Of a DNA stretch of 48,955 nt, positions 1 through 18,153 are shown in pieces (the first letter of the stretch is position 1; each line of letters starts with the position of its first letter). Made by a program: the position numbers and the translations under genes. Under the pieces are notes generated by a model that made no database searches, had not been told where the DNA came from, and saw nothing but the letters and a program-made list of their open reading frames with translations. This DNA comes from an uncultured Spirochaetota bacterium. Its GTDB lineage: Bacteria > Spirochaetota > Brevinematia > Brevinematales > JAOACQ01. Location: NCBI GenBank assembly GCA_963783575.1, contig CAWAOD010000007.1, positions 1 to 48,955 of the forward strand. The letters are read 5' to 3'.

Positions 1-137
1 CCCGCCACAGTAGGCTATCGATGAGCCTTGGCGGTAATATATGAAGTTTATCGCATTCTTTCTTGAACTAGCTCCATATTATCGTGAACTTAATTGTAGT
101 GCGAGTGTAACTCCTGTTCACCTCTCAGGTTCCGGGG

Positions 138-242: not shown

Positions 243-294
243 GCTGTAGCCTGTAAAATCCTGTGAATTTTGTCAAGGCCGGAGAAAAAGTGCG

Positions 295-1089: not shown

Positions 1090-2565
1090 GCGTCTCCCCG
1101 GTCTGGCGGCCCCACAGGCCCGTGAGCACGCCGTTCCAGAACCAGAAATAGAGCGGTTGTTTCCCGGGAAGGCGTGAATATGCGACCCGGTAATGCTGAT
1201 AATGGCAAAAACGATGTCCATTGTCACGACGGCCTTGGCAATGGTCACGGCGTAATCGGAACGGGAGCGGTCGATCACGGTGAACCCGTTTCTGATAAAA
1301 AAACAGGAGCACGATGATCATGATCATGCCGGGTAACCGAATACCGAAAGATACGTTATATAGAGCGAATCGGCGTTCAGCGCGCCTGTTCCGCGCCCGA
1401 ACACGGCAAGCTGCGGATCAATTGACATTTGAAATATAATTTTCCACAGGGCGATCCCGGGAAAGGAGTGAATACTCCTGGAACGGATTGCTCGATCGCG
1501 TTCGCCCTTTCGGTCACAAGCATGGTGAGCGTCTGGTTGGCGTGCTCGTTACCGCTGACGTTTGCGACAAAGGAGCCGACCCGATGCCCGGTCCGCACAA
1601 CCATTTCCAGGGCATCAAACAGCACGAAAGAACCTGCCATGAGCCCGAGGAAAACAAGGCGCTGCCGCGTTCCCTTTCACCCCTACAACCACGAACAGCC
1701 ATAGAAAAGTGAGAGCGCCATGCCAGATCCAGTTGGAACGGACCGACGTGATGAGCGCGCCGATCCAGAAGATCGGAAGCAGCAGCACGGCTGTTTTCCC
1801 TGAATATTTTTTCCATTCTGTAAATACTATGATGCCGATGACGCCCACCTGCATATAATCGGCAAACGAAGCGGGTGAGGTGAAAAAAGAAAACGGCCGC
1901 GCAATGCCTTTAATGAAAAGCGAGGAGAAATCAATCGAGGAGAACCATATTTTCTCCGCTTCGCTATACCCGAAAAGCGACTGCTTGAGGCCGTAGGTCA
2001 TGGCGATCACGCCGATCGCGATCGTTATTCCCCACAGGCGCTTCATATGTTTTTCTTCAAACGCATAGAGTATGCCGACGAAAAAAAGCAGGACCTGCGG
2101 TCCGTAATACCGGAAATGCAAAAGCGCTATTTTAAGAGGCTGTTCATTGTAGACGAACGTACGGAGGACCATATACAAAAAATAGAGCAGAACAAGGAAC
2201 GTTATTTTCTTTCTGAACGTTCCCTGCTGGATATGGTCACGGAAAACGAAAAAAAGGCCGAGCATCATGATTGCAAGGGTCAGGTCGCCGATCACGATCA
2301 GCGGGTCTGCCGTGGGCCGTGTGTAGGCGAGGTAATAGAGCCGTCGGATAAAGGGAATAAACGGCAGGAGGATGAACATACAGTAAACGCCTATGAGCGG
2401 ATAGCGCAGCACCGGATAAAACATGAGCAGGCCGAGAAGGACGACAAGTAGGAACTGGCTGGGCAGGTGCACGATCCTGAAGGCGACAATATTACCCACG
2501 ATCAGGATACCGGCAAATAAAACCAGCGAAAATATTTTTTGGCTCTGAACAGCCGAAGAAGGCAT
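1067..2565 (-). CDS. O-antigen ligase/Wzy_C-like membrane protein (frameshifted)
   Basis: Many TM segments, RPFSFFTSPASFA and ITSVRS motifs, hydrophobic C-terminal fragment, next to a glycosyltransferase. Confidence 0.7.
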
Positions 2566-2729
2566 CAGAGGATTTGCCGGTTGAAGAAAAAAAATGATTT
2601 ATTGGAACATAGCCATCACTATAATTATTATACAGGAATAATCATGCTAACGTCAATATCGGCAAGGAGATAGAAATAAATTGACTTCGCCGTTTAATTT
2701 TACCGATAAATGCTATATTATTACAACAT

Positions 2730-3014
2730 ATGATAAAAAATTCAGAAGCGGTTGCCGACCTGTTGAGCGATATTGTGCGTCAAGCACGTACCGGGGATTA
2801 CGGGGCCGTATCATCGCTGCTCAACCTGAGCATCCAGCGTATTCAGGTCGAGCTCGCCAGGGGGGACACGTCGCCGGCGGTCGTGGGGCAGGCTGCGGAT
2901 TTTCTCGAACATATGTTCGCTGCGCAGAAACGGGGCGACTGGGTGGATTTTGCCGATATTATTCGAGTTTTCTTTCCGTGAGTTCTGGATCAATAACTTT
3001 ACCGCGCCCTGCTG
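2730..3014 (+). CDS. Small helical hypothetical protein (probable frameshift near the 3' end)
   Basis: ORF 2730..2981 ending QKRGDWVDFADII; an alternate frame continues to TGA at 3014. Confidence 0.5.
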
Positions 3015-3054
3015 ATCCGCTTGTCGTTCTCCACAGAGAATGTGATATTCTTTT

Positions 3055-4155
3055 TTACAAAAAAGGTCGGACAGGGCGGGCCGTGTCTCCACCGCCGATC
3101 ATCGCGGCCGTCAACTGTCCGCAGGCGCCGGCGATGTCCTGGCCGCGGCTGGTGCGTACGGTCGCTGAAAGGCCGAGACCGTGCAGCAGGCTCGGCAAAC
3201 GTGCGAGGCGGCGTTGCGACAACGGGGCAACAGGGGCGACCGAGGAGATCGGGTTCAGCGGGATCAGGTTGATTTTGCAGGTGAGCGCCGCCGAGCAGTT
3301 TTTTCAGGGCCGCGGCTGGCTTCGGGCGTATCATTTTCCCCTTCGACAGACAACGTATTCAAACGTGACGCGGCGTCCGGTTTTTTCAAAGTACCGCTCC
3401 GCAATCTCTACCAGCGATTCGATCGGATATTTTTTATTGATCGGCATGATCGCGTAACGCTGTTCATTTGAGTAGCGTTGAGCGAAATGGCCAGCCCGAT
3501 GTTTAAACCCTCGGCCATGAGCCGTTCGATGGCGGGAATAACGCCGGCGGTCGAGACCGTGATCCGGCGGCCGCCGATGGCGAAGCAGTCGTTGTCCATG
3601 ATGATGGCAACGCTCGACCGGAAATTCTCGAAGATTGGAGAGCGCTTCGCCCATCCCCATAAAAACGATATTGGTGACGAGTTTGTCACTCTGGCCGCGC
3701 AATAATCGTTGATGCCGATGAGCTGGCCGATGATCTCTTCCTGGGACAGGTTGCGGATAAACCCCAGGCGGCCGGTTGCGCAGAAGGTGCAGCCCAGACC
3801 GCAGCCGAGCTGGCTCGAAAGGCAGGCGGTACGCCGGTCGCCGTCGATAAGCAGGACGCTTTCGATGATGTAGGGGGTGTCGATCAGGCCGAAACCGAAT
3901 TTGACCGCGTCGTTATTGCGCGACGTGACGACGGCGTCGGGCACGAGCTTTTCAAGGGAGAATATCCCGGCAAGTTTCTCTTGTGATGCACTCGCGACAT
4001 TGCGCATGGCATCAAACGAGTCGACCCGTTTCTGGTAGACCCATTTGATGACCTGGGGAGCGGAATGCCGGTTCACCGGAAGCAGCAATGGCTTTCCGCG
4101 CCTGTTCAAGCGGCAGGTTCTTGAGCCGGAGAAGATGAGGATGTCGTTCGTTCAT
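3055..4155 (-). CDS. rlmN: 23S rRNA (adenine2503-C2)/tRNA methyltransferase RlmN, radical SAM (frameshifted)
   Basis: CLSSQLGCGLGCTFCATG (CxxxCxxC), NIVFMGMGE, RRITVSTAG, LAISLNA, VTFEYV and C-terminal GACGQL. Confidence 0.93.
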
Positions 4156-4214
4156 AGGGAAAAGTTGAAATCACGCGGCTGCTCCAGAAGTCGCGGTGCT
4201 TCCGATTTTTTTTA

Positions 4215-4287
4215 CGCCCCCGTCCGTTCCTTCCCCGCAGGGGGAAGGGCATTTTGAAGTCTCCCTGACGAGGGAGATTCTGGGGCG
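4215..4287. repeat. GC-rich nested palindrome (REP-like)
   Basis: CGCCCC...GGGGCG encloses the hairpins CCTTCCCC-GCAG-GGGGAAGG and TCTCCCT-GACG-AGGGAGA. Confidence 0.6.
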
Positions 4288-4342
4288 CGAACAGGCTTTG
4301 CTTCGGGGTATTCATTAAAAACCTACATTCCGGAAAGTGTAA

Positions 4343-4770
4343 TTGTCAAAACATACCGGGAATTGGAACAGTCTCAGCACTGGTTTGTCGGGAATAGCTG
4401 TTAAATCACTTGCGATAGCCGACACTGCGCTCTTTGCCGGCACGGACGGTGCTTCTGTCTGGCGTCTTTCCCTTTATTCCGGAACCACGGCCATTAAACC
4501 TCATGTAGAAAAATTGAACCAGACATGCTCGTTTGATGTCCGGAACGGTTTTATGCGCTACACGCTCCAGGAAAAAACTTCTGTCAGTATAAAGCTGCTA
4601 AGTATTGACTGAAGGTATATCACTGCCCTCGTCAAGCGCGAACAGTCGCCCGGCAGCTATTAGTTGCCGATATAATCAGCATTCTTGGCAAAAGGCTGTT
4701 ACGTTTTGTCATTCGAGGCCGGGAGCTTAAAAATAAGACGAATGGTCGCGGTGGTGGATAAAAAACGAAC
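4343..4770 (+). pseudogene. Orphan decayed copy of the 3' end (last repeat plus C-terminal sorting domain) of the gene at 38952-41058
   Basis: Colinear nucleotide similarity to about 40614-40960; in-frame stops TGA, TAG and TAA where the paralogue has GGA, TCG and AAA. Confidence 0.85.
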
Positions 4771-5013
4771 CTTTAATTATTTACAAAGAGATATTTCGGG
4801 CGTTTCCCCTGTCTGCCATCGGCGGGCGGGGCCGGTTCTTGTTAAAACCTTCCCTCTATTCGGTCTCTCTTAATAAACTTATCATTTTATCATGTTGTCA
4901 AAACCGGGAATGTCTATCCTGATTTGATAAACCCGTATTGTGGAAGAAAGAGTCTGCTTTCTGCGCCGGATTTGCTTATATTAATTGCATAATGGCATAA
5001 GAAAGGGGACGGT

Positions 5014-6501
5014 ATGTTCCATAAAAAGATAGTGTTCGTTCTTCTTGCCTGCAGCCTCTCTTCATTTGCTTCCCTTGTTTCAGTCAGCGGCACGATTCCT
5101 CCGGCACGACGTGGAATGTTGACACTGTCGTTGTTACGGGCGATGTCACGGTGAACACCGGGGTGGTTTTGAACGTTGCCGCAGGCCACGCTCGTGCAAG
5201 CGGCCCGTCAATACCAGATCGCGGTCAACGGCCGGATCGTGGCGTCCGGCGCGGCGGGCAACTCCGTCGTGTTCACGGCGCAGGACACGGCCGCGGGCTG
5301 GCATGGGACTGCTTTCAGCAATTCAGGATCAACAAGCGATACCTCGAAATTCAACTGCTGCATAATCGAATATGCGAGAAAACAAGCGCGGGCGGCGCCA
5401 TTGCGGCAGGCTCCGCGAAAATCCGCATCACCCGCTCTGTCCTGCGCTGCGATTCCGGGTACCGACGGCGGCGCGCTCTATTGCCCGGGGCAGGGGTACT
5501 CATTGACAGTTGTTTTTTTTCCCGCAATACCGCTTCGGGCAAGGGCGGGGCGTACTACAAGTATCAGGCCAACATCCCCACGGTGACAAACAGCACGTTC
5601 AGCGACAACACGGCTTACGACGGCGGCGCGGTATACCTGGACGGGTGGTTCGGCAATTTCGACCGCTGCAACTTTATTCATAATTTCGCGTTGCATTACG
5701 GCGGCGGCGCGTACGTCTATAACGGCCCGTCCAACTTCTATAACTGCCGCTTCAGCCACGACAGCGCGGGTCAGCAAGGCGGCGGCCTGTATGACTGCGA
5801 CGAGTACTCGTCGTACCGTTACTATACGGGCTGTCTGTTCGACAACAACAGGGCAGGTGCGTCAGGAGGCGGAGCCTATATATACGATTTCGGGCTCGGC
5901 ATGACGTCGGAGTTTATCAACTGTACGATCACGGGCAATAAGGCGCCCACCGGCGGGGGAGTGCTGAGCTACGCGGTCACCGTGTATATCATCAACTCAA
6001 TCCTCTGGGGAAACAGTGCAACGGGAAGCGGCCCGCAGTTCAGCGCGGGCGGGACATATGGGTACGACAACACCAACCTTTACATAAAGTATTCCACGAT
6101 CCAGGGAGGCTGGAATACAATCGGCGGCAGCGCGTATAATGTGCGGAACGACACGGCCCTGTCGCTCCTTAATCCGCTTTTCAGCGACACACTGTCCGGT
6201 GATTACCGGCTGGTCGCACCGTCTCCCTGCATCGACTCGGGACGTGTTGATACTCTCGGATCGGGTGCCGCCGTTTGACCTCGCCGGCCTGCCGCGTTAT
6301 ATGAACGGCCGGATCGACCGGGGCGCATATGAGTATCAGCCGACTGTCTTCGCCTCGTCAAAACCCTTCAGACGCATGGCTGCGCCTGCGGCAAGGCCGC
6401 TCCGTTTCTTTGATTTCCGGGGACGTACGATCGACAGCCGCGGCTCCCGGGTCTGCGTCGCATCCGGCAAGGGCGTCATCGTCTCGCTGCCTGTGCAGTA
6501 G
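5014..6501 (+). CDS. Secreted right-handed beta-helix protein (Pmp-like GGA repeats, choice-of-anchor-Q-like end), frameshifted
   Basis: Signal peptide MFHKKIVFVLLACSL; repeated FxxN...GGAVY/GGGAY; DYRLxxxSPCIDSG and DLAGxPR..IDRGAYE. Confidence 0.8.
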
Positions 6502-6595
6502 CAGGAGCCCCTGATTGCAGATTAAACCATGTGCGGTTTATTTTCATTACATGCGCCCCTGGGTGCCCTGCGTGATTGCGCAGGTTACAAGAACA

Positions 6596-7723
6596 TCAAG
6601 GAACCGCGATCCTGAGCGCAACAGCCCTTTCCTTTCCGCTCACCATGACCACATACACGCCGCTGGGCTTGTTCTTAAACGCAAACTGGCGCTGCGCCGC
6701 GACGGCGGTGGCGACCACTCTGCCCCGGGTGTCAATCACCCGCACCCGGCTGTTTTCTCCGGCGCCTTGCAGGCGGACGATACCGGCGCAGTAGGTTGCT
6801 GAAAGATAATCGCGAGTGGCCTGATAGCCCGGAATCGATTGCCGTGAGATTCCCGTAGGGCCTGTCAGGGAGAACTGCTTGAAAAACGCCCACACTTCAT
6901 CGGCTTGGTTTAACCTGGTCGCCGCAGGCCATTGATGTCCCTCCCCCTGTATCGAATCCGCTATCACGTAGGTTCCTTGGGCGCATGGCCCGTAGGTGAT
7001 TCTGGTCACTCCGGAATTCGGACTGGTCGGAGGATACGGCCGCGTTATCTTTGGCGTGGAAGGACAGGTATCCAATTTCAACCAGATATTGAGATCATCG
7101 ATAAATGTGGATGGAACCGTTATATCTTGTGTTCCGAATGTCATAAATACGGAAATCGGACGTTTGAGAGGGCATGTCGTGTTGGAATGGCCGGACACCG
7201 GAGCTACCGCGGCAAAAACATTGGCGTAGCTGCATGAGGCAACGAAGCTAATCATCCCGCCCTGGGAAAATCCCGTCATGTAGACCCTGTTTCTATCGAT
7301 ATGGTACATTGCGTCAATCGTATCGATGACCGCCAGGAAAAAGGGAAAATTCGTCGTGCCCTGCATATCAGCCCATGTCCCGGCGGTCCCGTTGCTGGAA
7401 GCGCTGGGATAGACGGAAATGAATTTTTCCCTGTCCGCGGTAGCATCTCCTTTGGTTTCAGTCTCAAAAGCCGGGCCGCTTCCGTTGGCGCCATGGACAA
7501 AAAAGACAAGCGCGGGTTTGTTTATTCCGCTCGGAACATGCCAGACACAACTGTGCGTAGTTCCGTTAACGGTAAAAGTTTTGGTCACCGTCGTCTGCGC
7601 CAGTCCGGCTGCCGCGAGCGAAACAACAAGGACCGGGATTAAAAAAAATTGGCGGTTGATGGGGCCTCCTTTTTCCTGCAACATGGTTCTATTAAGAGTG
7701 GTCATGGGCCGAAGGGAACACAA
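6596..7723 (-). CDS. Secreted alpha/beta-hydrolase esterase (PHB depolymerase/LpqC/CE1-like) with C-terminal sorting domain; true start probably near 7660-7705
   Basis: VHGANG, IDRNRVYMTGFSQGG nucleophile elbow, GTQD, GEGHQWP; signal peptide; C-terminal IDTRGRVV...SGVYVV. Confidence 0.85.
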   Translation of the reverse strand: MCSLRPMTTLNRTMLQEKGGPINRQFFLIPVLVVSLAAAGLAQTTVTKTFTVNGTTHSCVWHVPSGINKPALVFFVHGANGSGPAFETETKGDATADREKFISVYPSASSNGTAGTWADMQGTTNFPFFLAVIDTIDAMYHIDRNRVYMTGFSQGGMISFVASCSYANVFAAVAPVSGHSNTTCPLKRPISVFMTFGTQDITVPSTFIDDLNIWLKLDTCPSTPKITRPYPPTSPNSGVTRITYGPCAQGTYVIADSIQGEGHQWPAATRLNQADEVWAFFKQFSLTGPTGISRQSIPGYQATRDYLSATYCAGIVRLQGAGENSRVRVIDTRGRVVATAVAAQRQFAFKNKPSGVYVVMVSGKERAVALRIAVP

Positions 7724-7852
7724 TTAAAAATATACACATAACGGGTATCTTTTGTCAAAAATAAAAATGGCTGATTATCAACCGGAACAGTTTTTCCCGT
7801 CGGCGTTCTTTTTAATGATGTTATTGAGGTCGTGGGTAGTGCGAAGTAAGCT

Positions 7853-7930
7853 AAAATAAAAAGGGAGTGGACCGATATGGCTACCGGTTACCACTCCCCG
7901 CAGAGAACATGCTGTGAGGCATGTAGGTGC
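7853..7930 (-). ncRNA. Candidate small RNA or leader with two hairpins and an intrinsic terminator
   Basis: Hairpin ACATGC-N6-GCATGT, then a GGGAGTGG/CCACTCCC stem followed by a U-run on the minus strand; TTGAAT-N18-TATATT upstream (7964-7935). Confidence 0.4.
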
Positions 7931-7983
7931 AATTAATATATAATGGTTGGAACGTAATATTCAACAATTTTTCAGGTAGTGTC

Positions 7984-8820
7984 TCAGTTTGACTTCTTAT
8001 TCAACAAACCCGCCAAATCCTGAATAGTCCAGAGCTTATTTGTAATTCCTGCCGCCATAGCCGGAGTAACGCGAAGCGTCTTATGAAGCCGAACAAAGTT
8101 ATAATACATGAAGTGCAGGGCTATTGCGTGTTTATGGTTTTCGATCTTCTTTGAAAAGGCATTCGTCAGTCTGGTGAATCTCCGCATCGACATTCTCATA
8201 GTAAGATTCTGACGCTCAACGTGGCTCGTGGAAATATGCTCTGCTTCCGGTTTGCCCATTACTATTTCCTTATTCGATCCGGTGCATACTGCCGGACTAT
8301 AGCGGTGTTCAGGATCAACGGAAGGGCCGTAGAGCTTCACTAAACGAGCGAAGTCTATATCGGCACCGAAACTATCTTCGACCGCTTCCAAGTAGGCTTT
8401 TAGGCCGTCTGTGGTAAGTTGGACTCGATTCTTAAGCCGTGCCGCAACGTCACGCATCAGTATCTTTGCGTATTCCGCATCCCTGTTTCCAACAAGCCAC
8501 GAAACGGCGAGCTTTGAATCAGAATCAAGAGCTACCCATGTCCAGATACTTCCAACACCGAATTGACCGCGCATATGTTCAGGAAGGTTCTTTTCTTTCG
8601 CATAGATGAATGACCATATCTCATCACACTGAATACGCTTCGTAGAGATATTGCGGACATTCTCATCATGGAATTTTTGACAGGCGGTTCCAAGATTAAC
8701 AAGGAGCTTCGTCACTGTGTTTATAGAAACATCCGCAAGGCGAGAGGTGGCGCGGAGACTGTTACCCTCTACGAGAAGGCCGATAATCTGAATCTGTTTT
8801 TCGAGAGATAGTCTATTCAT
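7984..8820 (-). CDS. IS1-family DDE transposase
   Basis: N-terminal HTH (EGNSLRATSRLADVSINTV), QCDEIW, LTTDG, STSHVERQNLTMR, RRFTRLTNAFSKK; stop codon lies inside the TIR. Confidence 0.95.
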   Translation of the reverse strand: MNRLSLEKQIQIIGLLVEGNSLRATSRLADVSINTVTKLLVNLGTACQKFHDENVRNISTKRIQCDEIWSFIYAKEKNLPEHMRGQFGVGSIWTWVALDSDSKLAVSWLVGNRDAEYAKILMRDVAARLKNRVQLTTDGLKAYLEAVEDSFGADIDFARLVKLYGPSVDPEHRYSPAVCTGSNKEIVMGKPEAEHISTSHVERQNLTMRMSMRRFTRLTNAFSKKIENHKHAIALHFMYYNFVRLHKTLRVTPAMAAGITNKLWTIQDLAGLLNKKSN

Positions 8821-8846
8821 ATTGACTCCTTTTTCTTCTTACTTAT

Positions 8847-8880
8847 AATATAACATATTATGCTTAAGGAGTCAAGCATA
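8847..8880 (-). promoter_or_regulatory. Transposase sigma70 promoter with overlapping palindromic operator
   Basis: TTGACT-N17-TATATT; TATGCTT-N8-AAGCATA at 8859-8880. Confidence 0.75.
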
Positions 8881-8904
8881 AAATTCAGTTTGAATAAATT
8901 AATT

Positions 8905-8931
8905 AAAAAGGGGAAGTTTTTAGCTTCCCCC
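8905..8931 (-). terminator. Intrinsic terminator after the 42-aa ORF
   Basis: GGGGAAG/CTTCCCC stem followed by U5 on the minus strand. Confidence 0.65.
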
Positions 8932-8937
8932 TTCTGC

Positions 8938-9066
8938 TTACTTCTTGAATGTTATCGGAAAGCACTTCTTCCCGTATGCCGCAGCAAAAATTAATTTTTT
9001 ACTGCGCCAATGACGGAAATGTGTTACCATCCGACGCGCTCGCGTCCGAGGCAATATCTTCTCCAT
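8938..9066 (-). CDS. 42-aa basic small protein (below the ORF-track cutoff)
   Basis: MEKILPRTRARRMVTHFRHWRSKKLIFAAAYGKKCFPITFKK*; AGAGAGGA RBS upstream; terminator directly downstream. Confidence 0.65.
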   Translation of the reverse strand: MEKILPRTRARRMVTHFRHWRSKKLIFAAAYGKKCFPITFKK

Positions 9067-9092
9067 CTGAGGCCAATCCTCTCTATCGACAC

Positions 9093-9121
9093 TTGCATAA
9101 AATGGCCCCAAATGGTATATT
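9093..9121 (+). promoter_or_regulatory. Sigma70 promoter with extended -10, driving a candidate sRNA
   Basis: TTGCAT-N17-TATATT with TGn directly before the -10. Confidence 0.65.
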
Positions 9122-9126
9122 TAAGG

Positions 9127-9218
9127 TGTCTAAGCATTTGAGGGCCACCCCTTTTCATTGGATAAAGGGGAACCAGTGTTGAGGCTTGTTCTGCACTAAC
9201 AGAACAAGCCTTTTTTAT
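9127..9218 (+). ncRNA. Candidate ~90-nt small RNA
   Basis: Lies between the promoter and a perfect 12-bp terminator stem; internal CCCCTTT/AAAGGGG hairpin; no credible ORF. Confidence 0.55.
9182..9218 (+). terminator. Intrinsic terminator
   Basis: AGGCTTGTTCTG-CACTAA-CAGAACAAGCCT followed by TTTTT. Confidence 0.8.
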
Positions 9219-9240
9219 TTCATAATCATTTCTCTCCTAA

Positions 9241-9708
9241 TTAATAAGGTAAATTTTCTTCACTATTTTCTGGCGGTTTTTGTGGTATAGGATATTCTTT
9301 CAAGCCAAATACATTAGGCCCGGACTTAACAAATATTTGATTTTGTAAAGAATAAGTATTCAACGACCATCCCAATGATACCCGATGAGATCGTGTATTA
9401 TCAACGCTTATGCCATTTAAAATTTCTGATATATGCGCTGGTTTCCCATGTTTTTGTAAAAACATTCTTGCTTTGTAGGGCAAGCTATCTATTCTTAACC
9501 CTCTTTCCTTTGATTCAACAGGAACATCTTCTTTTTCAGAAGAAATAATACCTATCGTACCAGCAGATTTTATTGCATCCTGCAAGCCTGAAATATAACC
9601 CTGTATTTTTTCTATTTCTAACAATCGGCCCTGTATTTCTGCCCTAATCTTTTCAATCTCATTTTTTTTCTTTTCTACCTTGCGTTCTAAATCTTGTCGA
9701 AGTCCCAT
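9241..9708 (-). CDS. Coiled-coil plus HARE-HTH-like winged-helix protein
   Basis: N-terminal coiled coil; C-terminal LQKHGKPAHISEIL...IFVKSGPNVFGLKEY; RBS before ATG 9708. Confidence 0.7.
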   Translation of the reverse strand: MGLRQDLERKVEKKKNEIEKIRAEIQGRLLEIEKIQGYISGLQDAIKSAGTIGIISSEKEDVPVESKERGLRIDSLPYKARMFLQKHGKPAHISEILNGISVDNTRSHRVSLGWSLNTYSLQNQIFVKSGPNVFGLKEYPIPQKPPENSEENLPY

Positions 9709-9747
9709 TGTACGCCCCTTTTGAGGTGATATTGATTGACGTGACAA

Positions 9748-9776
9748 AATATAGTTTGCAATCACATCAATGTCAA
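9748..9776 (-). promoter_or_regulatory. Sigma70 promoter of the HARE-HTH-like gene
   Basis: TTGACA-N17-TATATT. Confidence 0.7.
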
Positions 9777-9970
9777 ATTATATTTACTGTGTCTGAAAAA
9801 AGTTCGGTTTTTATGCTATGATAAAGCATAAAAAGTATATTTGTATTGTATGGTTATTTAGTATCTTTAAAGTAAGCATTGTTGAAGCAACTTAAGTAAA
9901 GATTGATTATATAAATCTTGATGTGTCCGTATAGTTTTAACCTTACAAACATTAGGAAGAAGGTGTTGTT

Positions 9971-10819
9971 ATGAATCATGAGTTAGTTGCCGAATTGTTT
10001 AGTAAATTTGAAATGGCAAAACAAATTATCGAAGAAACAGAATTTTGGAGTGCAAGAGATTTGCAAGAACACTTAGGATATGCTGAATGGCGAAATTTTT
10101 TTGAAGTAATTGAAAAGGCAAAAATTGCTTGTGCAAAATCAGGTGGTGTCATTAATGACCATTTTGTTGATACTAACAAAATGGTCATGGTGGGAAGCGA
10201 CGCAAAGCGTGAAATTGAAGACATAATTCTTTCACGATTTGCTTGTTATTTAATAGCTCAAAACGGTGATCCCAATAAGAGTGAAATAGCTTTCGCTCAG
10301 ACCTACTTTGCTGTTCAAACCAGGAAACAAGAATTAATAGAACAAAGACTTCGTGACATTGCAAGGGTTCAAGCACGAGAAAAATTGAGCGGATCAGAGA
10401 AAAAACTTTCTGGTATTATATATGAACGAGGAGTCAACGATAAGGGTTTTGCATTAATTCGATCTCAAGGTGACAATGCTCTTTTTGGAGGAAATTCAAC
10501 TCAAGACATGAAAAAGAAATTAGCTGTTCCAGAAGGTCGTCCTCTGGCTGATTTCTTGCCAACACTTACAATCAAAGCAAAAGATTTTGCGACAGAGCTT
10601 ACAAGTCATAATGTCGTTGAAAAAAATCTTCATGGGGAAGTATCTATTTCGAGAGAGCATATTGATAATAATAAAGCGGTTCGAAAAACACTTGGTGACC
10701 GTGGAATCAAACCGGAAAGTTTACCAGCAGCAGAGGATGTAAAAAAACTTTCAAGAAGACTGATAAGTGAAGAAAAAGAATTAATAAAAAACGGAATTAA
10801 AAAATCAAAAAAACAATAA
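9971..10819 (+). CDS. dinD: DNA damage-inducible protein D (Bro-N-like plus DinD domain)
   Basis: EFWSARDLQ..LGY..WRNF, LSRFACYLIAQNGDP.K..IAFAQTYFAVQTRKQE, PLADFLPT, GIKPESLPAAEDVKK. Confidence 0.92.
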   Translation: MNHELVAELFSKFEMAKQIIEETEFWSARDLQEHLGYAEWRNFFEVIEKAKIACAKSGGVINDHFVDTNKMVMVGSDAKREIEDIILSRFACYLIAQNGDPNKSEIAFAQTYFAVQTRKQELIEQRLRDIARVQAREKLSGSEKKLSGIIYERGVNDKGFALIRSQGDNALFGGNSTQDMKKKLAVPEGRPLADFLPTLTIKAKDFATELTSHNVVEKNLHGEVSISREHIDNNKAVRKTLGDRGIKPESLPAAEDVKKLSRRLISEEKELIKNGIKKSKKQ

Positions 10820-10832
10820 TTCGATTAAAACA

Positions 10833-11063
10833 TTAATTATTGTTCCAACGACTTTTTGCCGCTATTTTCGCTATTTCTTTTCGTTTCTTAGCTGTTAGAG
10901 CTTTAGCCCTTGCCTTACCCCCTTTAAGCCCCCCTAATCGCCCCAATTCAACGGCGTGAGGATTCTTTGTGGTTTCGTGTGCCTCTTCAGCTTGCCCGGT
11001 TGCAATGTCAACAATCATTTTTGCTAACTGGTTCTGATCGCGGGGGCGTTTTGGTGTTTTCAT
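10833..11063 (-). CDS. Small basic protein of the KRPRDxNQLAK type, associated with IS1-like elements
   Basis: MKTPKRPRDQNQLAKMIVDIATG...KNPHAVELGRLGGLKGGKARAKAL...RW. Confidence 0.85.
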   Translation of the reverse strand: MKTPKRPRDQNQLAKMIVDIATGQAEEAHETTKNPHAVELGRLGGLKGGKARAKALTAKKRKEIAKIAAKSRWNNN

Positions 11064-11070
11064 ACCCTGA

Positions 11071-11103
11071 AATATAACACAGTGTGCTTATCCGGTCAAG
11101 CAT
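11071..11103 (-). promoter_or_regulatory. Sigma70 promoter/operator of the small basic protein (probably leaderless)
   Basis: TTGACC-N17-TATATT with TGCTT-N8-AAGCA; only 7 nt between the -10 and the ATG. Confidence 0.75.
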
Positions 11104-11234
11104 TAACCGGAAACCCCGCTTTCAAACTGAGACACTACCATTTTTCAGAATAATTAATATTTTTAGGCGTTCCCCTCGGCCGTTTTCCGGCCAAGGGTCG
11201 GCGTGGTTCCAGGCTCTCGCGTTCGCGAGCTGGT

Positions 11235-11334
11235 TTTGATTTCAACTCCACAGAAACTTATGGGTGGGGGTACACTGAAGCTCAAAGTTATAATATCGGT
11301 GCCCACCCCACACCCAATCAGAGGCCTTTAGCTA
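11235..11334 (+). repeat. Dispersed ~100-bp intergenic repeat, copy 1
   Basis: Matches the reverse complement of 41006-41111 (TGGGTGGGGGTACAC.GAAG.TCA...CGGTGCCCACCCC). Confidence 0.75.
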
Positions 11335-11355
11335 AAAAAATTACTTTAAATAGAT

Positions 11356-11380
11356 ATTTCTTTATCATTTCTTTATACTT
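11356..11380 (+). promoter_or_regulatory. Putative KdpE-binding direct repeat
   Basis: ATTTCTTTAT twice at an 11-bp period upstream of the kdp operon, like T-rich OmpR-family boxes. Confidence 0.5.
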
Positions 11381-11480
11381 CCCCTCTCATTATTAACAAT
11401 TTCCGTATTTTTTGTGGATTAATTTTTGCTATAGATGATATGAAGGAAATGTCGACAGCTTTTAAGGGAGGTGAGCTATC

Positions 11481-12254
11481 ATGAGTTGGACAACTATGCA
11501 CCAGGCCGTACTCATCAGAGGAGGGAAGATACTCGCGTTTTGCGCAGTTATTCTGGTCACGACCAAGCTCACGCTGGAGTTCGGCGCGATCACCAACTCA
11601 TCAACAGCCGCATTTTTCTTCCTTATTATAGTTCTTATGTCCGCTTTTTTCGGTGATCTCCTTGTGGCCATCATCACCTCTTTGGTGGCCACGCTTTGCT
11701 TCGATTATTTCTATTTGCCGCCAGTCGGGACCATCAACATTTCTTCTTTTTCCGATTGGATTTCACTATTCGCATTTCTGCTTGCCTCCGTGATTATAAG
11801 CCGTCTTACCGCTTCGGCTGCTGAAAACAAAGTAAAAGCATATGTACTGAATAAAACAATGGTGCAGTTAAAGGCATTTGGCGAGAATCTTTTGTCCATA
11901 CCCAAAGACCAGCTAACGCTGTCTGGAATTGCCCAAGCGGCCCTGAACAGCTTCTCGCTGGAATACTGCTCGATTCATGTCTATGGCGAGGGAAAATGGC
12001 AGCATTATTCCGGAAAAGCATTCACTGGAATTTTCCGGATGGTTGAAAAAAAAGTGGACACTTTGCCGCACTATCCGACGGATTTAATGGAACTGGCGGA
12101 CGAGAATATGCTGGGCGTCCAGTACATGCAGATCAAAAAGGGAACGGCAACGCAGGCATTGCTCGTTGTCAAAAGTAAAACGCTGGCCGCCGAGACCCTG
12201 GGGGCCATCGCCAGCATGATCGGCGTACAGTTAAGCATCATCATGAAAGGGTGA
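11481..12254 (+). CDS. DUF4118 (KdpD transmembrane-like) domain protein
   Basis: Four TM helices with ATLCFDYFYLPPVGT..SDWISLFAFL; no kinase domain. Confidence 0.8.
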   Translation: MSWTTMHQAVLIRGGKILAFCAVILVTTKLTLEFGAITNSSTAAFFFLIIVLMSAFFGDLLVAIITSLVATLCFDYFYLPPVGTINISSFSDWISLFAFLLASVIISRLTASAAENKVKAYVLNKTMVQLKAFGENLLSIPKDQLTLSGIAQAALNSFSLEYCSIHVYGEGKWQHYSGKAFTGIFRMVEKKVDTLPHYPTDLMELADENMLGVQYMQIKKGTATQALLVVKSKTLAAETLGAIASMIGVQLSIIMKG

Positions 12255-12265
12255 CAGGGACCATT

Positions 12266-12355
12266 ATGGATTTCGAAACCATACTCTGCGTGGGCGCGGC
12301 AGTGCTGCTCTTTGTCTATTTGATTTACACCATCATCCGTCCTGAAAAATTTTAA
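12266..12355 (+). CDS. kdpF: K+-transporting ATPase subunit F
   Basis: MDFETILCVGAAVLLFVYLIYTIIRPEKF*, with the YL..(R)PEKF signature, directly before kdpA. Confidence 0.9.
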   Translation: MDFETILCVGAAVLLFVYLIYTIIRPEKF

Positions 12356-12367
12356 GGAGGGCGATCC

Positions 12368-14061
12368 GTGCATCAGATGGATTTTTTACAGGTCATTGTT
12401 TATATCGTCGCACTCACGTTTCTGACGCCCGTGCTCGGTGCGTATATGGCGGACGTATTATCGCAGAAGAGAAGTTTTCTTTCACCGCTGCTCACACCTG
12501 CCGAAAATGCGATCTATCGTTTAAGCAGGATAGATCCTGAAGAGGAGATGACCTGGAAACGGTATTGCGTCGCCCTTCTGATTTTCAGCGGGATGGGAAT
12601 GGCGGCCGTGTTTATCTTCCAGCTGGCGCAAAAGATGTTGCCGTTCAATCCGCAGCATCTGCCTGCGGTCCCATGGCACCTTGCCCTGAACACCGCGATA
12701 AGTTTTGTTACCAATACTAACTGGCAGGCCTATGCGGGTGAAACGACCCTTTCCTACCTCACTCAGTTTCTCGGGCTCACTGTCCAGAACTTTGTCAGCG
12801 CGGCAACCGGCATTGCAGTGTTCGCGGCGCTCTGCCGCGGCATCAGCCGCCGTTCGTCCCGGACAATCGGGAATTTCTGGGCCGATCTTGTCCGATCCAC
12901 CGTGTATATCCTGCTTCCGTTATGCCTTGTGTTAGCCGTCATTCTTGTGGGCCAGGGCGTGGTGCAGACTTTTTCTCCTTATGTAACCGCCACCACGATC
13001 GAAGGCCGGCAGCAGACGATCCCGCTCGGCCCGGCCGCTTCCCAGATAGCAATAAAACAGCTGGGCACGAACGGCGGCGGTTTTTTCAACGCGAACAGCG
13101 CGCACCCGTTCGAGAACCCAACGCCGCTGTCAAATTTCCTCGAGATGCTGGCCATCCTGCTCGTTGCTGCGGCCTTGACCTATACTTTCGGCAAAATGGT
13201 CGGTTCTAAAAGACAGGGCTGGATGCTTTTTATCTCGATGCTGACTACTGTTTATCGGCGGCCTTGCGGTTTCCCTTTACGCCGAGCATGCGGACAACCG
13301 TCTGCTCGGCGTTGCCGGTTCACTTGAAGGGAAAGAGACCAGGTTCGGCGATCACGAACAGCGTCATCTGGTCGACCGCGACCACTGCCGCGTCGAACGG
13401 GTCAGTCAATGCCATGCACGAGAGCCTTTCCCCGCTTGCCGCATTGGTCGCCATGTTCAACCTCATGGTCGGCGAAGTGATCTTCGGCGGCGTGGGGTCA
13501 GGCATGTACGGCATGATCGCCTATGTGATTCTGGCGGTCTTCATCGCGGGTCTCATGGTAGGCAGGACCCCGGAATATCTGGGGAAAAAAATCGAATCGT
13601 TCGAAATCAAGATGTCGGTCATCGCGGTGCTCGCCTCCTCGATTGTGGTGCTGTTTTTCGCCGCTCTTGCCTGCATCACACCTGCCGGACTGGCCGGTCT
13701 TTCCGCGAGCGGAACGCACGGCCTTGGCGAGGTGTTGTACGCCTTTGCCTCCACGGCGAACAACAACGGCAGCGCTTTTGCCGGGCTCAATGCCAATACG
13801 CCGTTCTATAATCTCATGACCGGTGCGGCAATGCTTATCGGCCGTTTTTCGGTGATCGTGCCCATGCTCGCCATTGCCGGCCATCTTGCGCAGAAGAAAT
13901 TTACGCCGCCGTCGGCCGGGACTTTCCCGACGGACGGCGCGCTTTTCGTACTTCTGCTCCTCGGTACGATCATCATCATCGGCGCGCTCAACTTTTTCCC
14001 GGTGCTTTCACTGGGGCCGATCATAGAACACCTGTTTTTTATTGCCGGGAAAGGGTTCTGA
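12368..14061 (+). CDS. kdpA: K+-transporting ATPase subunit A (frameshifted near 13250-13345)
   Basis: [53 protein letters not shown]. Confidence 0.95.
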
Positions 14062-14062
14062 T

Positions 14063-16159
14063 ATGCCTGAATCCAGACCTCATGCAAAACCATTCGATGC
14101 CGCCATACTACGGTCCGCGGTGGTTGATTCCTTCCGGAAATGCGACCCGCGTCAACTGATGAAAAACCCGGTCATTTTCGTGGTCGCGGTCGGCGCGCTC
14201 CTTTCGGTTGTTTCCACGGTGCGCGGCATCCATCACGGCGGCCTCTTTTCATTCAACCTGCAGATCTCTCTCTGGCTCGTCTTTACCGTCCTTTTTGCCA
14301 ACTTTGCCGAGGCAATGGCCGAAGGACGCGGCAAGGCGCAGGCGGCCGAGCTGCGGAGGAGCCGCACCAGGACCATGGCCCGCAGAATAATTGACGGACG
14401 CGAAACGACCGTGGCCGCCTCGGAACTGAAGGCCGGGGACACGGTTGTCTGCGAGGCAGGAGATATCATTCCGTCCGACGGCGAGGTGATCGAGGGGATC
14501 GCCAGCGTGGACGAGTCGGCAGTGACCGGTGAATCGGCGCCCGTGATCCGGGAGAGCGGCGGCGACCGCAACGCGGTGGTCGGCGGCACCAAGGTCCTGA
14601 GCGACCGGATCGTCATCAGGGTCACCTCGGAACCCGGGAGCTCGTTTTTAGACCGGATGATCGCGCTCGTTGAAGGCGCGGTGCGCCAGAAAACGCCCAA
14701 CGAGATCGCGCTTTCCATACTTTTGTCAAGCCTGACGCTCGTATTTCTCGTGGTCGTGATGACGCTGCCGGCATTCTCCCGTTATGTCATGCAGTCGACG
14801 AACCAGAGCGGGGCGATTGTCCTGTCGGTCCCCATCCTTGTCGCGCTCCTTGTCTGTCTTATTCCCACGACCATCGGCGGTCTGCTCAGCGCCATCGGCA
14901 TAAGCGGCATGAACCGGCTGCTGCATCACAACGTGCTCGTCGTCAGCGGCAGGGCGATCGAGGCGGCCGGCGACGTGGATGTGCTGCTGTTGGACAAGAC
15001 CGGCACGATCACGATCGGCAACCGCATGGCGACCGAGTTCCTGCCCGGCCCAAGCGTCACGAGCCAGCGGCTCGCCGACGCGGCCCAGCTGGCCTCGCTT
15101 TCCGATGAAACGCCGGAAGGACGTTCCATCGTGGTGCTTGCCAAGAACGAATACAACCTCCGTTCGCGCGACATCATCGACCTGAAGGCGCATTTCATCC
15201 CGTTTTCGGCAAAAACGCGGATGAGCGGCGTCGACATTCCGGACGCCGCGACCGGCAGAGTGCGGTCAATACGCAAAGGCTCTTCCGAAGCGATCCTTCG
15301 TTTCATCCTCGAACACGACGGCACCTATCCGATCGCGATATTCAATATTGTCAATACTGTCGCGCAGCAGGGCGGCACGCCGCTCGTGGTGGCCGAGAAC
15401 AATCTCGCCCTCGGCGTGATCAATTTAAAAGACGTGGTAAAAGGCGGCATCAAAGAGCGGTTCATACATCTGCGCGCAAGCGGCATAAAAACCGTGATGG
15501 TCACCGGCGACAATGCGGTCACGGCCGCGGCCATCGCGGCGGAGGCCGGCGTCGACGACTTTATCGCCGAGGCCACGCCCGAGATGAAGCTTGCCCGCAT
15601 CCGTGAAGAGCAGGCTAAAGGCCATCTGGTGGCGATGATCGGCGACGGCACCAACGACGCTCCGGCGCTTGCGCAGGCCGATGTCGGCGTGGCGATGAAC
15701 ACCGGCACGCAGGCTGCTCGCGAGGCGGGCAACATGGTGGACCTCGACAGCAATCCGACCAAGCTCATCGAGGTCGTTGAAATCGGCAAGCAGCTCCTCA
15801 TGACGCGCGGCGCGCTCACCACGTTCAGCATTGCCAATGACGTGTCAAAGTATTTCGCCATCATTCCGGCCATGTTTTCCGGGCTTTTCGCAAGCGGCGG
15901 GCATCCCGGCCCGCTTGCCGCGCTGAACATCATGCGGCTTTCGTCGCCGGCGAGCGCGATCCTGAGCGCGGTCATATTCAATGCGCTCATCATCGTTTTT
16001 CTTATTCCGCTGGCGCTCAAAGGGGTTTCGTACCGTTCGCTGCCTGCCGCGCAGGTCCTCCGCCGGAATCTGCTCATCTACGGGGTCGGCGGGCTGGTCG
16101 TGCCGTTTGTCGGCATCAAACTGATCGATATGCTGGTTTCAGTACTTCACATTGTGTAA
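14063..16159 (+). CDS. kdpB: K+-transporting P-type ATPase subunit B
   Basis: [34 protein letters not shown]; intact ORF. Confidence 0.97.
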
Positions 16160-16169
16160 ATGAATAAAA

Positions 16170-16218
16170 ATCCCCCCATTTCCCCCCTTAAAAAAGGGGG
16201 GGCAAAGGCGGGGGGAAT
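16170..16218. repeat. GC-rich nested-hairpin (REP-like) element between kdpB and kdpC
   Basis: ATCCCCCC-ATTT-CCCCCCTT-AAAA-AAGGGGGGG-CAAAGGC-GGGGGGAAT, same family as 18086-18134. Confidence 0.8.
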
Positions 16219-16229
16219 TGATTCTTGAC

Positions 16230-16808
16230 ATGAAGCAGTTCTGTTCTTTTCGGATATTTATCGTACTCACGCTCCTCACCGGCGTGCTGTATCCGCTTGC
16301 GGTCACCGCCGTGGCCCGGCTTATTTTTCCGTACCGGGCAGGGGGCAGTCTGGTCGTCGTGCATAATAAAATCGTCGGTTCGGAGCTCATCGGCCAGCAG
16401 TTTACCGATAACCGCTATTTCCAGCCCCGTCCGTCGGCCATTGCTTATAACCCTTTGCCTTCGGGCGGCAGCAACTTGAGCTGCACCTCACTTCATCTCC
16501 GGGATTCCGTGGAAACCCGCGGCCGCATGTTCCGATAAAGTCAACCGGCTTTCGCGGCAGACCCAGGTGCCGCCAGACATGCTTTTCGCTTCGGCCAGCG
16601 GCCTTGACCCGGACATCAGCCCGGAGTCGGCGCGGCTGCAAATGCCAGGGTCGCCCGGGAAAGGAAGTTCTCAAAGGCCGAAAGGGCAGCGCTCGCTTTG
16701 CTGGTCGAACATTCCGTAATCTTTCCGCAAATGGGGTTTCTCGGAGAGCCGCGCGTCAACGTGCTCCGGCTCAACGAAACTCTTGACCGATTAAATAAAG
16801 AAAAATAG
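16230..16808 (+). CDS. kdpC: K+-transporting ATPase subunit C (frameshifted)
   Basis: [20 protein letters not shown]...[35 protein letters not shown]. Confidence 0.92.
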
Positions 16809-16859
16809 TGGTACGTTCTTTTGCCGGGGATTATTATATACAGGGAGCGTTAATGCAAC

Positions 16860-17882
16860 TGATCATAGAGTACGATATGATCGAAACAGGCCTTTTGAAG
16901 TAAAAAGTTGGTTTGAATGGTTTATTTATAAGGGTGATGAATGGATTTACGAAAAAGAACATAGATTTCTAATCGGGTTATACAATGCCGACGAATTTTA
17001 TAAGGGTAAGATTGATCAATCCAATCGAATTTATGGTCGAAAACCTCCGAATATTCATTCGAAAGAATATTTTTGCATGTGTAAAATTCCTGAAAGCGCT
17101 CTTCTTTCGGTCTCATTTGGTGCAGAAATGAATAAGGATCAACAGGATAATATATAAATGAAAATTCAAATTCGAATCCTTTATTATCTCATCTTAAAGT
17201 TTTTAAAGTAAATATCCATCCGGATAGATATGAACTTGTTCTTTAATGAAATTCAATCATAACCATTATTTGATATATGGAAAATACTACTGTTGAAATA
17301 GGTATAGAAATTCAACCATCAGCTATTTCGAAATATTTAGAGGTAAATCTAACCGAAACAACGGATACTCCGCTACAAATAATTGATAATTATTTCCGAA
17401 AATGTCTTTATGAACAAGTAATTTGTCGGCTTGGAAGACGAGCTTGTAAGTGAACCTAAAATTAAAGTTCATGAGTTTTTACCACAAAAATAAATGCTTA
17501 AGCCTTAAAGGGTTAGAAAAAGAGGGATATGATAATTGGTATATGGAAATACACACTAAATTGTCAAAAGACTTCCCCCATTCATTTTTTAGATATTAAT
17601 CCTATTGGATTTAAGAAGATCTAAATTACCAAGGCGTTCATGCTGGTGTATATAATTATAGAAAAAAATCTTAAAGACTCAGAGAAATATCCGTACGGTA
17701 TTAAATCGCGTTTTCGTCCCAGCAAGTATTTTTAAGGATATTTCAGAAATCATCCTCTTTAAAAAATATTGGCTTGATGGCTGATCTGAATAAAATAACG
17801 CCAGATAGGCTAAAATTGCTGCCGATCTTTGTAGATAAAGTAACTGGCGATGAATTTTATTGTTCATGCGCAATAGGAGTTG
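16860..17882 (+). pseudogene. Decayed AT-rich foreign coding segment, first part DUF2971-like
   Basis: Strong AT shift; fragment EWFIYKGDEWIYEKEHRF resembles the DUF2971 K-x3-W-x-YE-x-E-x-R motif; many stops. Confidence 0.45.
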
Positions 17883-18135: not shown

Positions 18136-18153
18136 TCTTCACGAAAAACCGCT

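Follow-up and report, generated by a model that had tools for sequence, protein, structure and literature searches.

Positions 1 to 48,955 of contig CAWAOD010000007.1 (assembly GCA_963783575.1), from an uncultured Spirochaetota bacterium, are referred to below as the window. Within this stretch of 48,955 nucleotides (nt), positions 8905 to 9218 hold a compact module that consists of a minus-strand gene for a basic miniprotein of 42 amino acids (aa) and, on the opposite strand, a predicted gene for a cis-antisense small RNA directed against the leader of the miniprotein messenger RNA (mRNA). We put at about 0.55 the probability that this locus is a type I toxin-antitoxin-like cassette, in which damage- or phage-sensing regulators of mobile or defence islands have, as one of their outputs, a miniprotein gated by antisense RNA. 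The original prediction, made from the letters of the window, suggested a toxin, defence or regulatory unit under RNA control, possibly undescribed and resembling type I toxin-antitoxin loci, and this proposal is supported by the comparative sequence analysis described here. The elements of the module and the gene that precedes it are as follows.

8938..9066, minus strand: small open reading frame (ORF), 42 aa plus stop codon, MEKILPRTRARRMVTHFRHWRSKKLIFAAAYGKKCFPITFKK; coding part 9066-8941 (ORF listing)
9077..9083, minus strand: Shine-Dalgarno-like GAGAGGA, 10 nt ahead of the ATG (direct reading)
8905..8935, minus strand: intrinsic terminator belonging to the small ORF, with a stem of 12 pairs and then a T-run (terminator scan)
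9093..9121, plus strand: predicted antisense promoter, TTGCAT (9093-9098)-N17-TATATT (9116-9121), with TG at 9113-9114 as an extended -10 (direct reading)
9128..9218, plus strand: predicted cis-antisense small RNA of about 91 nt, 5' end inferred from the -10 and 3' end placed at the T-run
9181..9216, plus strand: intrinsic terminator of the antisense RNA, 13 pairs (6 G-C) and a loop of 6 (hairpin 9181-9212), followed by TTTTATTT (terminator scan)
9148..9170, both strands: conserved hairpin CCCCTTT...AAAGGGG, common to the antisense RNA and the mRNA leader (window-subfamily comparison and folds)
9103..9147, minus strand: mRNA-leader hairpin, helix A, whose loop holds the complement of the antisense -10 (duplex energies)
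9062..9076, minus strand: translation-initiation segment UUGGCCUCAGAUGGA, which can pair with the 3' arm of helix A to give helix B and thereby cover the AUG (duplex energies)
9241..9765, minus strand: upstream gene, 174 aa, with a coiled coil and a weakly HARE-HTH-like C-terminus (Pfam search)

The miniprotein gene and its family

The minus-strand ORF with a ribosome-binding site and a terminator of its own, which had been read from the sequence, is present at 9066-8941, with GAGAGGA at 9083-9077 and the terminator at 8935-8905. The frame is open over 9111-8938 of the minus strand (a 57-aa frame), and its 42-aa form begins at the ATG at 9066. GAGAGGA or GAAAGG is kept at the equivalent site of L094 and L096, the two metagenome relatives of the window type, and hairpins equivalent to the terminator are also carried by relatives 3' of the miniprotein ORF. 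A phmmer search with the 57-aa frame against 1.84 billion representatives returned three proteins (41, 49 and 59 aa, E = 4e-7 to 5e-4), all of which span precisely the 42-aa part of the frame, and a metagenome scan for relatives of the miniprotein yielded eight loci. With a profile of nine relatives, the search of which was restricted to proteins of 20-104 aa, 325 short proteins were matched at E <= 1 among 368 candidates; among the profile matches listed (120 of the 325), every E value was at most 3e-7. The anticipated homologues with the quoted peptide motif thus exist: the family core reads [IV]xFVKxFRHWRSGKIIRAEDYGxKAFPI and is followed by a K/R tail, and in an alignment of 114 sequences G32 is invariant while F17, H19, W20, R21, S22, G23, A28, Y31 and F36 are at least 90% conserved.

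Conservation also extends to the codon level. Between the ORF of the window and those of L094 and L096, pS, the proportion of synonymous differences, is 0.80-0.88 (synonymous sites are saturated) and pN, its non-synonymous counterpart, is 0.20-0.23, and the ratio of non-synonymous to synonymous substitution rates (dN/dS) is 0.19 for the pair L097/L098 and 0.12 for the pair L102/L103. The small ORF is a genuine gene under purifying selection. At 42 aa and truly coding, it resembles the small proteins of type I toxin-antitoxin systems, which are usually shorter than 60 aa.

The members of this family have largely escaped annotation. All source names of the relatives are "hypothetical" except for one "uncharacterized membrane protein", and no family for miniprotein members was found in Pfam, NCBIfam or PHROGs. 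None of the RmrT models of PADLOC matched any of nine family members at E <= 10; one of the nine gave a single weak PADLOC match, to PDC-S19 (16.9 bits). The source-named carriers are Desulfovibrio desulfuricans, Leptospira meyeri, Faecalibacterium prausnitzii, a Bacillota metagenome-assembled genome (MAG), a Myxococcales MAG and two Leptospira interrogans plasmids, and at the plasmid copy of the gene no feature is annotated. A literature search on words from the peptide motif, COG2856, type I toxin-antitoxin systems and antisense RNA found no description of the family, subscription papers and bioRxiv supplements lying outside this search. The miniprotein is therefore placed in an undescribed, unannotated family with hundreds of members in at least five phyla.

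The distribution of this family is sparse. Members occur in at least 7 of 401 genomes of the window's phylum (the window's own genome counted) and in at least 4 of 401 genomes of another phylum, figures that are lower bounds because each genome scan scored at most 17 candidates. In its own genome, the module region is single-copy and one family member only is present. A DNA search of 60 related genomes with the module region gave matches of chance length only (22-46 nt), and a word-index protein search with the 42-aa peptide alone gave no match, the window's copy being absent from the protein collection.

As had been proposed, the peptide is cationic rather than hydrophobic, being rich in K, R and H and having no hydrophobic stretch. 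An AlphaFold2 model built with the family alignment has a mean predicted local distance difference test score (pLDDT) of 82.3, with 25 of the 42 residues at 90 or above, and consists of a three- to four-strand sheet and one short helix, so that the miniprotein is predicted to be a basic, small, soluble beta-sheet protein. The best Foldseek match to the PDB had E = 6.3, the VIA wide structure search found no chain at Z >= 2, the ESM Atlas returned unnamed clusters only (scores 0.84-0.85), and in the PDB profile search no match fell below E = 0.049, while a 13-bit alignment with the SlyA wing was not significant. A possible likeness to the small SH3-like chromatin proteins of Sulfolobus found no support in the Foldseek, VIA or PDB profile searches.

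The predicted antisense RNA gene and the mRNA leader

The putative antisense RNA gene in the window is delimited by a promoter predicted 27-55 nt 5' of the start codon of the miniprotein and by the terminator at 9181-9212, which had been foreseen and comprises 13 pairs. The TTG-N20-TATATTTA of the promoter also bears a possible resemblance to the -33/-7 type of Bacteroidota promoters. The predicted 91-nt RNA has a fold energy of -34.9 kcal/mol (z = -4.05), and none of 200 shuffled sequences folds as well. No Rfam family was matched above its gathering threshold in the window (best E = 1.2), and two tRNAs were the only Rfam families found in 18 related loci. Between 7800 and 10000, five terminator-like sites were found against 2.0 +/- 1.5 in shuffled sequences. 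The original prediction had named, as part of the outcome that would count against it, a hairpin that acts only as terminator of the upstream gene; the minus strand after the 9181-9212 hairpin reads TCAACACT, with no T-run, and on the mRNA strand the structure is a leader hairpin. With its T-run on the plus strand only, the hairpin does not have the form of a conventional terminator for the HARE-HTH-like gene that lies upstream.

Among the three window-type sequences, the segment from -35 to -10 is the best-conserved stretch, at 83-90% identity between the window and L094/L096, compared with 73-76% for the leader, 65-67% (nucleotide) for the ORF and 41-62% for the terminator. The terminator stem has changed in sequence in L094 and L096 and has retained its pairing. 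The stems were compared by eye, as a three-sequence MAFFT alignment put the terminator stems out of register.

Co-conservation of the antisense gene was assessed in 20 family loci, none dropped, which form 18 independent groups: the window, L094 (= L093), L096 (= L095), L097/L098, L099, L100, L102/L103 and L104-L114. Both strands of the 300 nt 5' of each start codon were scanned with a strict sigma-70 promoter rule and a relaxed terminator rule (a single hairpin of -9 kcal/mol or lower, with 5 or more T among the next 9 nt). An antisense-strand hairpin with a T-run is found at -100 to -225 in all 20 loci, and a strict antisense sigma-70 promoter at -10 to -100 in 11. Antisense promoter and terminator stand in the right order and 60-140 nt apart in 11/20 loci (9/18 groups), compared with 2/20 on the sense strand. 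The background was taken from 80 unrelated transposase loci, whose 837.5 kb of strand contain 64 such pairs; this amounts to 0.076 per kb, or 0.46 expected in the 6 kb scanned; with a strict terminator rule, pairs are present in 7 of 14 loci against a background of 0.032 per kb. Several of the promoters are near consensus (TTGACG-N17-TATAAT in L097/L098, TTGACA-N18-TAGAAT in L099 and TTGACA-N17-TAAACT in L102/L103), and the wobble pairs in the terminators of L098 and L099 favour the antisense strand. The antisense RNA sequences are unrelated between subfamilies, as those of cis-antisense RNAs would be. Promoter and hairpins are hence co-conserved with the peptide, as had been anticipated, and a predicted antisense small-RNA gene is retained across subfamilies while its sequence is not conserved.

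The arrangement of sense promoters bears on how the miniprotein is expressed. The interval that separates the antisense gene from the ORF has no strict sense promoter in the window or in L100, L102, L103, L106, L108 and L110, and in L097, L098 and L112 the sense promoters lie 5' of the antisense terminator; any transcript that reaches the small ORF therefore has to pass through the predicted antisense gene. In the window, transcription of the small ORF most likely occurs by read-through from the upstream 174-aa gene, as judged from the arrangement of these signals.

An mRNA leader produced in this way can form two alternative helices. The imperfect inverted repeat TGGCCCCAAATG (9103-9114) / CATTTGAGGGCCA (9135-9147), which had been described as spanning the antisense -10, is present and corresponds on the minus strand to helix A, with the 5' arm UGGCCCUCAAAUG (9147-9135) within the antisense-RNA target and the 3' arm CAUUUGGGGCCA (9114-9103) outside it. 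Helix A has an energy of -19.9 kcal/mol in the window, -14.4 in L094 and -20.2 in L096, and it retains its pairing through G.U pairs that are found on the mRNA strand only. Because of this restriction of the G.U pairs to the mRNA strand, and of the positions of the sense promoters, the leader is assigned to the mRNA. The inverted repeat is more readily interpreted as a hairpin of this leader than as an operator of the promoter. The 3' arm of helix A can alternatively pair with UGGCCUC(A/G)(G/A)AUG, start codon included, and this helix B has energies of -23.5 (window), -20.3 (L094) and -21.1 (L096) kcal/mol and is present in the minimum-free-energy fold of the window leader (z = -3.3). A helix of 12-13 bp over the AUG is conserved in all three window-type sequences. 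Since the predicted antisense RNA covers the 5' arm of helix A and not its 3' arm, its binding would favour helix B, in a model drawn from these three sequences.

Regulators, proposed mechanism and alternative explanations

The genes that precede the miniprotein gene link it to a particular type of regulator. HTH_3 and Peptidase_M78 genes are situated directly upstream and on the same strand in 8/18 groups, namely L094, L099, L100, L102/L103, L104, L106 and L110 by Pfam and L108 by the annotation of the record. The fused forms are full-length RmrA (E = 5e-61 in L094 and 2e-112 in L106), and the split peptidases match capP; an XRE + M78 pair is seen in L099, L100, L102/L103, L104, L108 and L110. 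In L112 the pair lies downstream, its M78 match just under threshold. The other groups have a HARE-HTH-like gene, a member of an unnamed 240-387-aa family, an AbiEi-like fragment or no regulator. The constant part of the cassette is the miniprotein with the predicted antisense gene, and the variable part is the regulator. A complex prediction for the RmrA of L106 and its miniprotein gave scores of 0.00 and 0.00, which count neither way. In L094 a 201-aa ORF (1147-1752, plus strand) without an assigned family overlaps the start of rmrA and is a candidate RmrT; the two would make up a canonical RosmerTA pair located upstream of the miniprotein gene.

RmrA and CapP are both absent from the window, which thus lacks the neighbours by which RosmerTA and CapH/CapP loci are recognized. 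Its 174-aa upstream gene had been called HARE-HTH-like; a weak resemblance to Pfam HARE-HTH (PF05066, E = 0.032) holds, and the assignment itself does not, the score of 15.1 bits being below the cut-off of 25.9. The protein is an orphan, with no relatives in genome contigs, viral contigs or the protein collection, and it has no PADLOC match and no Peptidase_M78. With no T-run after the hairpin on its strand and no strict sense promoter between it and the ORF, this gene is probably co-transcribed with the small ORF and would fill the regulator slot. A near-consensus minus-strand promoter, TTGACA-N17-TATATT (11/12), at 9748-9776 ends at 9748, inside the GTG-started ORF 9765-9241, which places the probable start of the upstream gene at the ATG at 9711 (MGLRQDLERK…).

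In the mechanism that we propose, the locus would be a self-contained cassette of two overlapping genes in opposite orientation. The miniprotein would be read from a long leader, in the window by read-through from the HARE-HTH-like regulator gene, and an antisense RNA of about 90 nt, running from its own promoter to its own terminator, would be fully complementary to that leader. Made constitutively, this RNA would pair with the leader and silence the small ORF post-transcriptionally while the upstream regulator is still expressed. For the window subfamily, we envisage that this pairing would take the 5' arm out of helix A, so that the freed 3' arm would close the 12-13 bp helix over the AUG; cleavage of the duplex may add to the silencing. 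The miniprotein would then be made only in a burst of transcription that outruns the antisense RNA, which in the relatives would follow the destruction of the XRE repressor by the ImmA/IrrE peptidase, and it would act as a dosage-sensitive effector on a conserved cellular target, probably nucleic acid. A more far-reaching and tentative interpretation would see in the miniproteins a type I toxin family that is soluble, is directed at nucleic acids or ribosomes and is the first such family to be shared by at least five phyla, as well as the killing or arrest output of ImmA/IrrE-type switches (RmrA, CapH/CapP), with the cis-antisense RNA setting the threshold in a three-layer abortive-infection or stress cassette of repressor, peptidase and antisense RNA; under this interpretation, the gene would have been overlooked by genome annotation because it is only about 130 nt long. 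No named family is assigned to the locus, because we infer both the toxicity and the transcript, the peptide lacks the hydrophobic feature and the window has neither RmrA nor CapP.

Several observations weigh against the interpretation as an antisense-gated, type I-like cassette. As to the protein, the hydrophobic or transmembrane character that is typical, though not universal, of type I toxins is absent, as there is no hydrophobic helix, and no toxin was matched by 8 of the 9 members tested against the PADLOC models at E <= 10. If the 201-aa ORF of L094 is the true RmrT partner of its RmrA, the miniprotein there could be an extra gene. As to the RNA, the promoter of the window does show the TTGCAT-N17-TATATT and extended -10 that had been reported; its -35 matches just 3/6 consensus positions, for which reason the promoter scan does not list it, and taken alone it is weak evidence. 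A strict antisense promoter is missing in 9/20 loci. In the window subfamily, every wobble pair of two hairpins, the first and the third, reads G.U in the mRNA and C.A in the other strand, and so favours the mRNA over the antisense RNA. Furthermore, the predicted accessibility of the start site has a family mean of 0.38 (n = 20), compared with 0.41 for 55 control ORF starts from the same loci (one-sided Mann-Whitney p = 0.19), so that a general "translationally inert mRNA" is unsupported across the family, and masking of the antisense target has a mixed outcome: the predicted accessibility decreases in 7/11 loci, is approximately unchanged in L096 and L106 and is raised in L100 and L104.

Of the alternatives, a non-toxic regulatory miniprotein fares best, although we consider it rather unlikely. 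The miniprotein would then belong to a mobile-element switch, as an anti-repressor, a co-factor of the ImmA/IrrE peptidase or a small DNA-binding factor, limited by antisense RNA as in P22 sar/ant and P1 c4/ant. Such a role would agree with the position of the gene directly after XRE + Peptidase_M78 genes in 8/18 groups, with the excisionase-type HTH_17 gene that follows it in L104, with the basic peptide that lacks a membrane helix and with the neighbouring Bro-N protein of the window, a domain common in antirepressors. Two members are also encoded on IMG/VR viral contigs, beside lysis and replication genes; these were found with a later family alignment, the first having yielded none. Against this role, no match was found in 50,697 phage records with one member as query, and the partners vary (split or fused XRE + M78, HARE-HTH-like, others or none) whereas the core is nearly invariant across several phyla, a combination that fits a conserved cellular target better than co-evolving partners.

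The absence of a separate small RNA is improbable. In that case, the hairpins would be cis-acting leader structures (a stabilizer, a processing site or a translational switch) or terminators or insulators of the upstream gene, and the promoter-like hexamers would be an operator or AT-rich sequence. The mRNA-strand G.U pairs, the poor -35 of the window and the nine loci without a strict promoter would all be accommodated by this explanation, the switch made up of helices A and B would work without a trans factor, and in some loci (L104, L107, L110, L111) runs are present on both sides of the hairpin. It does not readily account for the T-run on the antisense side in 20/20 loci, with the sense side usually lacking one, for near-consensus antisense promoters at a fixed distance in 9/18 groups against 0.46 expected, for the antisense-favouring wobble pairs of the L098 and L099 terminators or for the -35 to -10 segment being the best-conserved stretch of the window subfamily.

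That the module is a part of the adjacent IS1-family insertion element and regulates its transposition, like RNA-OUT in IS10, was considered highly improbable and rejected. The transposase gene does start 85 nt past the terminator of the small ORF, and the two are contained in a contiguous block shared with L093/L094; however, for 13 other copies of the element the part that aligns with the window begins at about 7969-8024 and ends at about 8890-8906, at that terminator, the six-frame translations of 80 other transposase loci gave no miniprotein with the family profile (best L048, E = 0.29), and most family loci have no transposase. Finally, a plus-strand 77-aa ORF (8949-9182) exists, with its stop 1 nt inside the terminator stem, but its standing as the real gene, with the minus-strand ORF as its shadow, is practically dismissed by the several stops that interrupt the corresponding antisense frames in L094 and L096, the minus-strand frame being, by contrast, conserved across hundreds of proteins.

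The antisense-gated, type I-like cassette preferred here has parallels among well-studied loci. In Escherichia coli, tisB/istR-1, dinQ/agrB and zorO/orzO are type I loci with hydrophobic membrane-peptide toxins, and tisB and dinQ are under the damage-sensing repressor LexA. The present module shares with them a small protein gene with a long structured 5' leader and an opposite-strand RNA, here predicted, that lies 5' of the start and targets the leader rather than the Shine-Dalgarno sequence; the role of LexA at tisB and dinQ is taken in 8/18 groups by the XRE + ImmA/IrrE pair. Unlike these loci, it encodes a basic, predicted soluble beta-sheet protein, belongs to a family that spans several phyla and has a predicted RNA that overlaps its target in cis completely over about 90 nt, as opposed to a short complementary patch. 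The loci symE/symR and ralR/ralA are type I systems with non-membrane, nucleic-acid-directed toxins, of which SymE is SOS-induced, and SymR covers the ribosome-binding site. They resemble the module in having a soluble basic protein under a cis-antisense RNA (predicted in our case); no sequence or fold similarity to the miniprotein was found in the PDB profile, Foldseek and VIA searches, the miniprotein is far smaller than SymE, and, unlike in symE/symR, the predicted RNA ends 61 nt 5' of the AUG.

Two further groups of systems offer parallels at the RNA level. In P22 sar/ant and P1 c4/ant, the RNAs cover the ribosome-binding site and the targets are large antirepressors; in the module, a short intercistronic antisense RNA in a regulator operon, predicted here, would limit the downstream gene in a similar manner, and no homology between them and the module was found. 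In hok/sok and aapA/IsoA, metastable leader structures and alternative helices open or close the start region. The leader of the module likewise has alternative helices, with helix B at least as stable as helix A in the three window-type sequences; unlike those systems, it has no 3'-end fold-back and no leader peptide, and a general occlusion of the start was not found across the family.

With regard to the regulators, published accounts describe RmrA as an antitoxin that pairs with many unrelated toxins (PMC10440598; preprint 10.1101/2022.05.11.491447) and report variable toxins beside it (PMC10440598), and CapH/CapP are described as switching on immune operons after DNA damage. Similar to the operons of RosmerTA (RmrT/RmrA) and CapH/CapP, relatives of the miniprotein gene lie directly 3' of RmrA (L094, L106) or of XRE + CapP-like pairs. 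Unlike them, the window has neither regulator and the miniprotein matches no RmrT model, and the accessible descriptions of RosmerTA and CapH/CapP include no antisense RNA layer. A "third component", or three-component system, has been predicted for Xre-COG2856 pairs (PMC2701414), and the miniprotein is a candidate for this component; it may also be an additional output of the RmrA and CapH/CapP regulators. According to PMC12390103, no type I systems are known outside Proteobacteria, Firmicutes and Tenericutes. If the preferred interpretation is true, the presence of such cassettes in a lineage that bears a type IX secretion system (T9SS), in Desulfovibrio, Leptospira and Faecalibacterium and in the Myxococcales MAG would widen this phylogenetic reach, and a rare non-membrane toxin would be added to the type I class. 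In any case, the family comprises hundreds of unannotated proteins, many of which have not been called as genes.

The genomic island and the insertion sequence

The G+C content is 57-63% in 5000-6900 and 12650-14000 and 29-49% in 7550-11450, and the module therefore sits in a foreign-looking island. The low-G+C island extends over 7969-11139 (about 3.2 kb, 29-49% against about 58-60%), with no tRNA gene within 1-20000. Beside the module and the 174-aa gene, it carries the following genes.

7984-8820, minus strand: IS1-family transposase gene, 278 aa, PF03400 E = 4e-7 (Pfam)
9971-10819, plus strand: Bro-N protein, 282 aa, PADLOC defence candidate PDC-S13, full length, E = 1.8e-115 (PADLOC)
10833-11063, minus strand: 76-aa ORF, C-terminus basic (…KKRKEIAKIAAKSRWNNN), without a family in Pfam or PADLOC (ORF listing)

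The window and L093/L094 share a contiguous block that includes the transposase gene, the small ORF and the antisense region and is 75% identical, as well as a second block with the 76/88-aa gene, which suggests that one island of about 3.2 kb has been inherited with the insertion already in place. The ends of the island are common with L094 and its middle differs, with the Bro-N/PDC-S13 gene and the HARE-HTH-like orphan in the window and the 201-aa ORF and RmrA in L094; it looks like a cassette-swapping mini-island. The 76-aa ORF is conserved, at 71-72% nucleotide identity, in an ORF of 88 aa that lies at the opposite end of the island in L094. For the Bro-N protein, there is in addition a match to one part of a model of type I restriction specificity (E = 1.3e-49).

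The IS1-family element is about 0.94 kb long (7969-8906) and has inserted exactly where the T-run of the small-ORF terminator lies; the metagenome contigs L093/L094 show the same junction. It is single-copy in its own genome, and its transposase was found in 2/301 genomes of the phylum, its own genome counted. In L016, L017 and L019, which belong to one MAG, three copies of the element share a second repeat of 300-450 nt (about 1050-1500) that is 96-97% identical and lies about 1 kb 5' of the transposase, beyond the bounds of the element as set by the other copies. Further along the minus strand of the window, 6596-7723 encodes an esterase/polyhydroxybutyrate (PHB)-depolymerase-like alpha/beta hydrolase with a weak C-terminal match to a Por/T9SS sorting domain, a match that would suggest a host in the Bacteroidota-related (FCB) group. 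Among the relatives, two tRNA genes of L112 (2273-2518, minus strand) adjoin the miniprotein + XRE + M78-like cassette, an arrangement that fits the integration of a mobile element at a tRNA locus.

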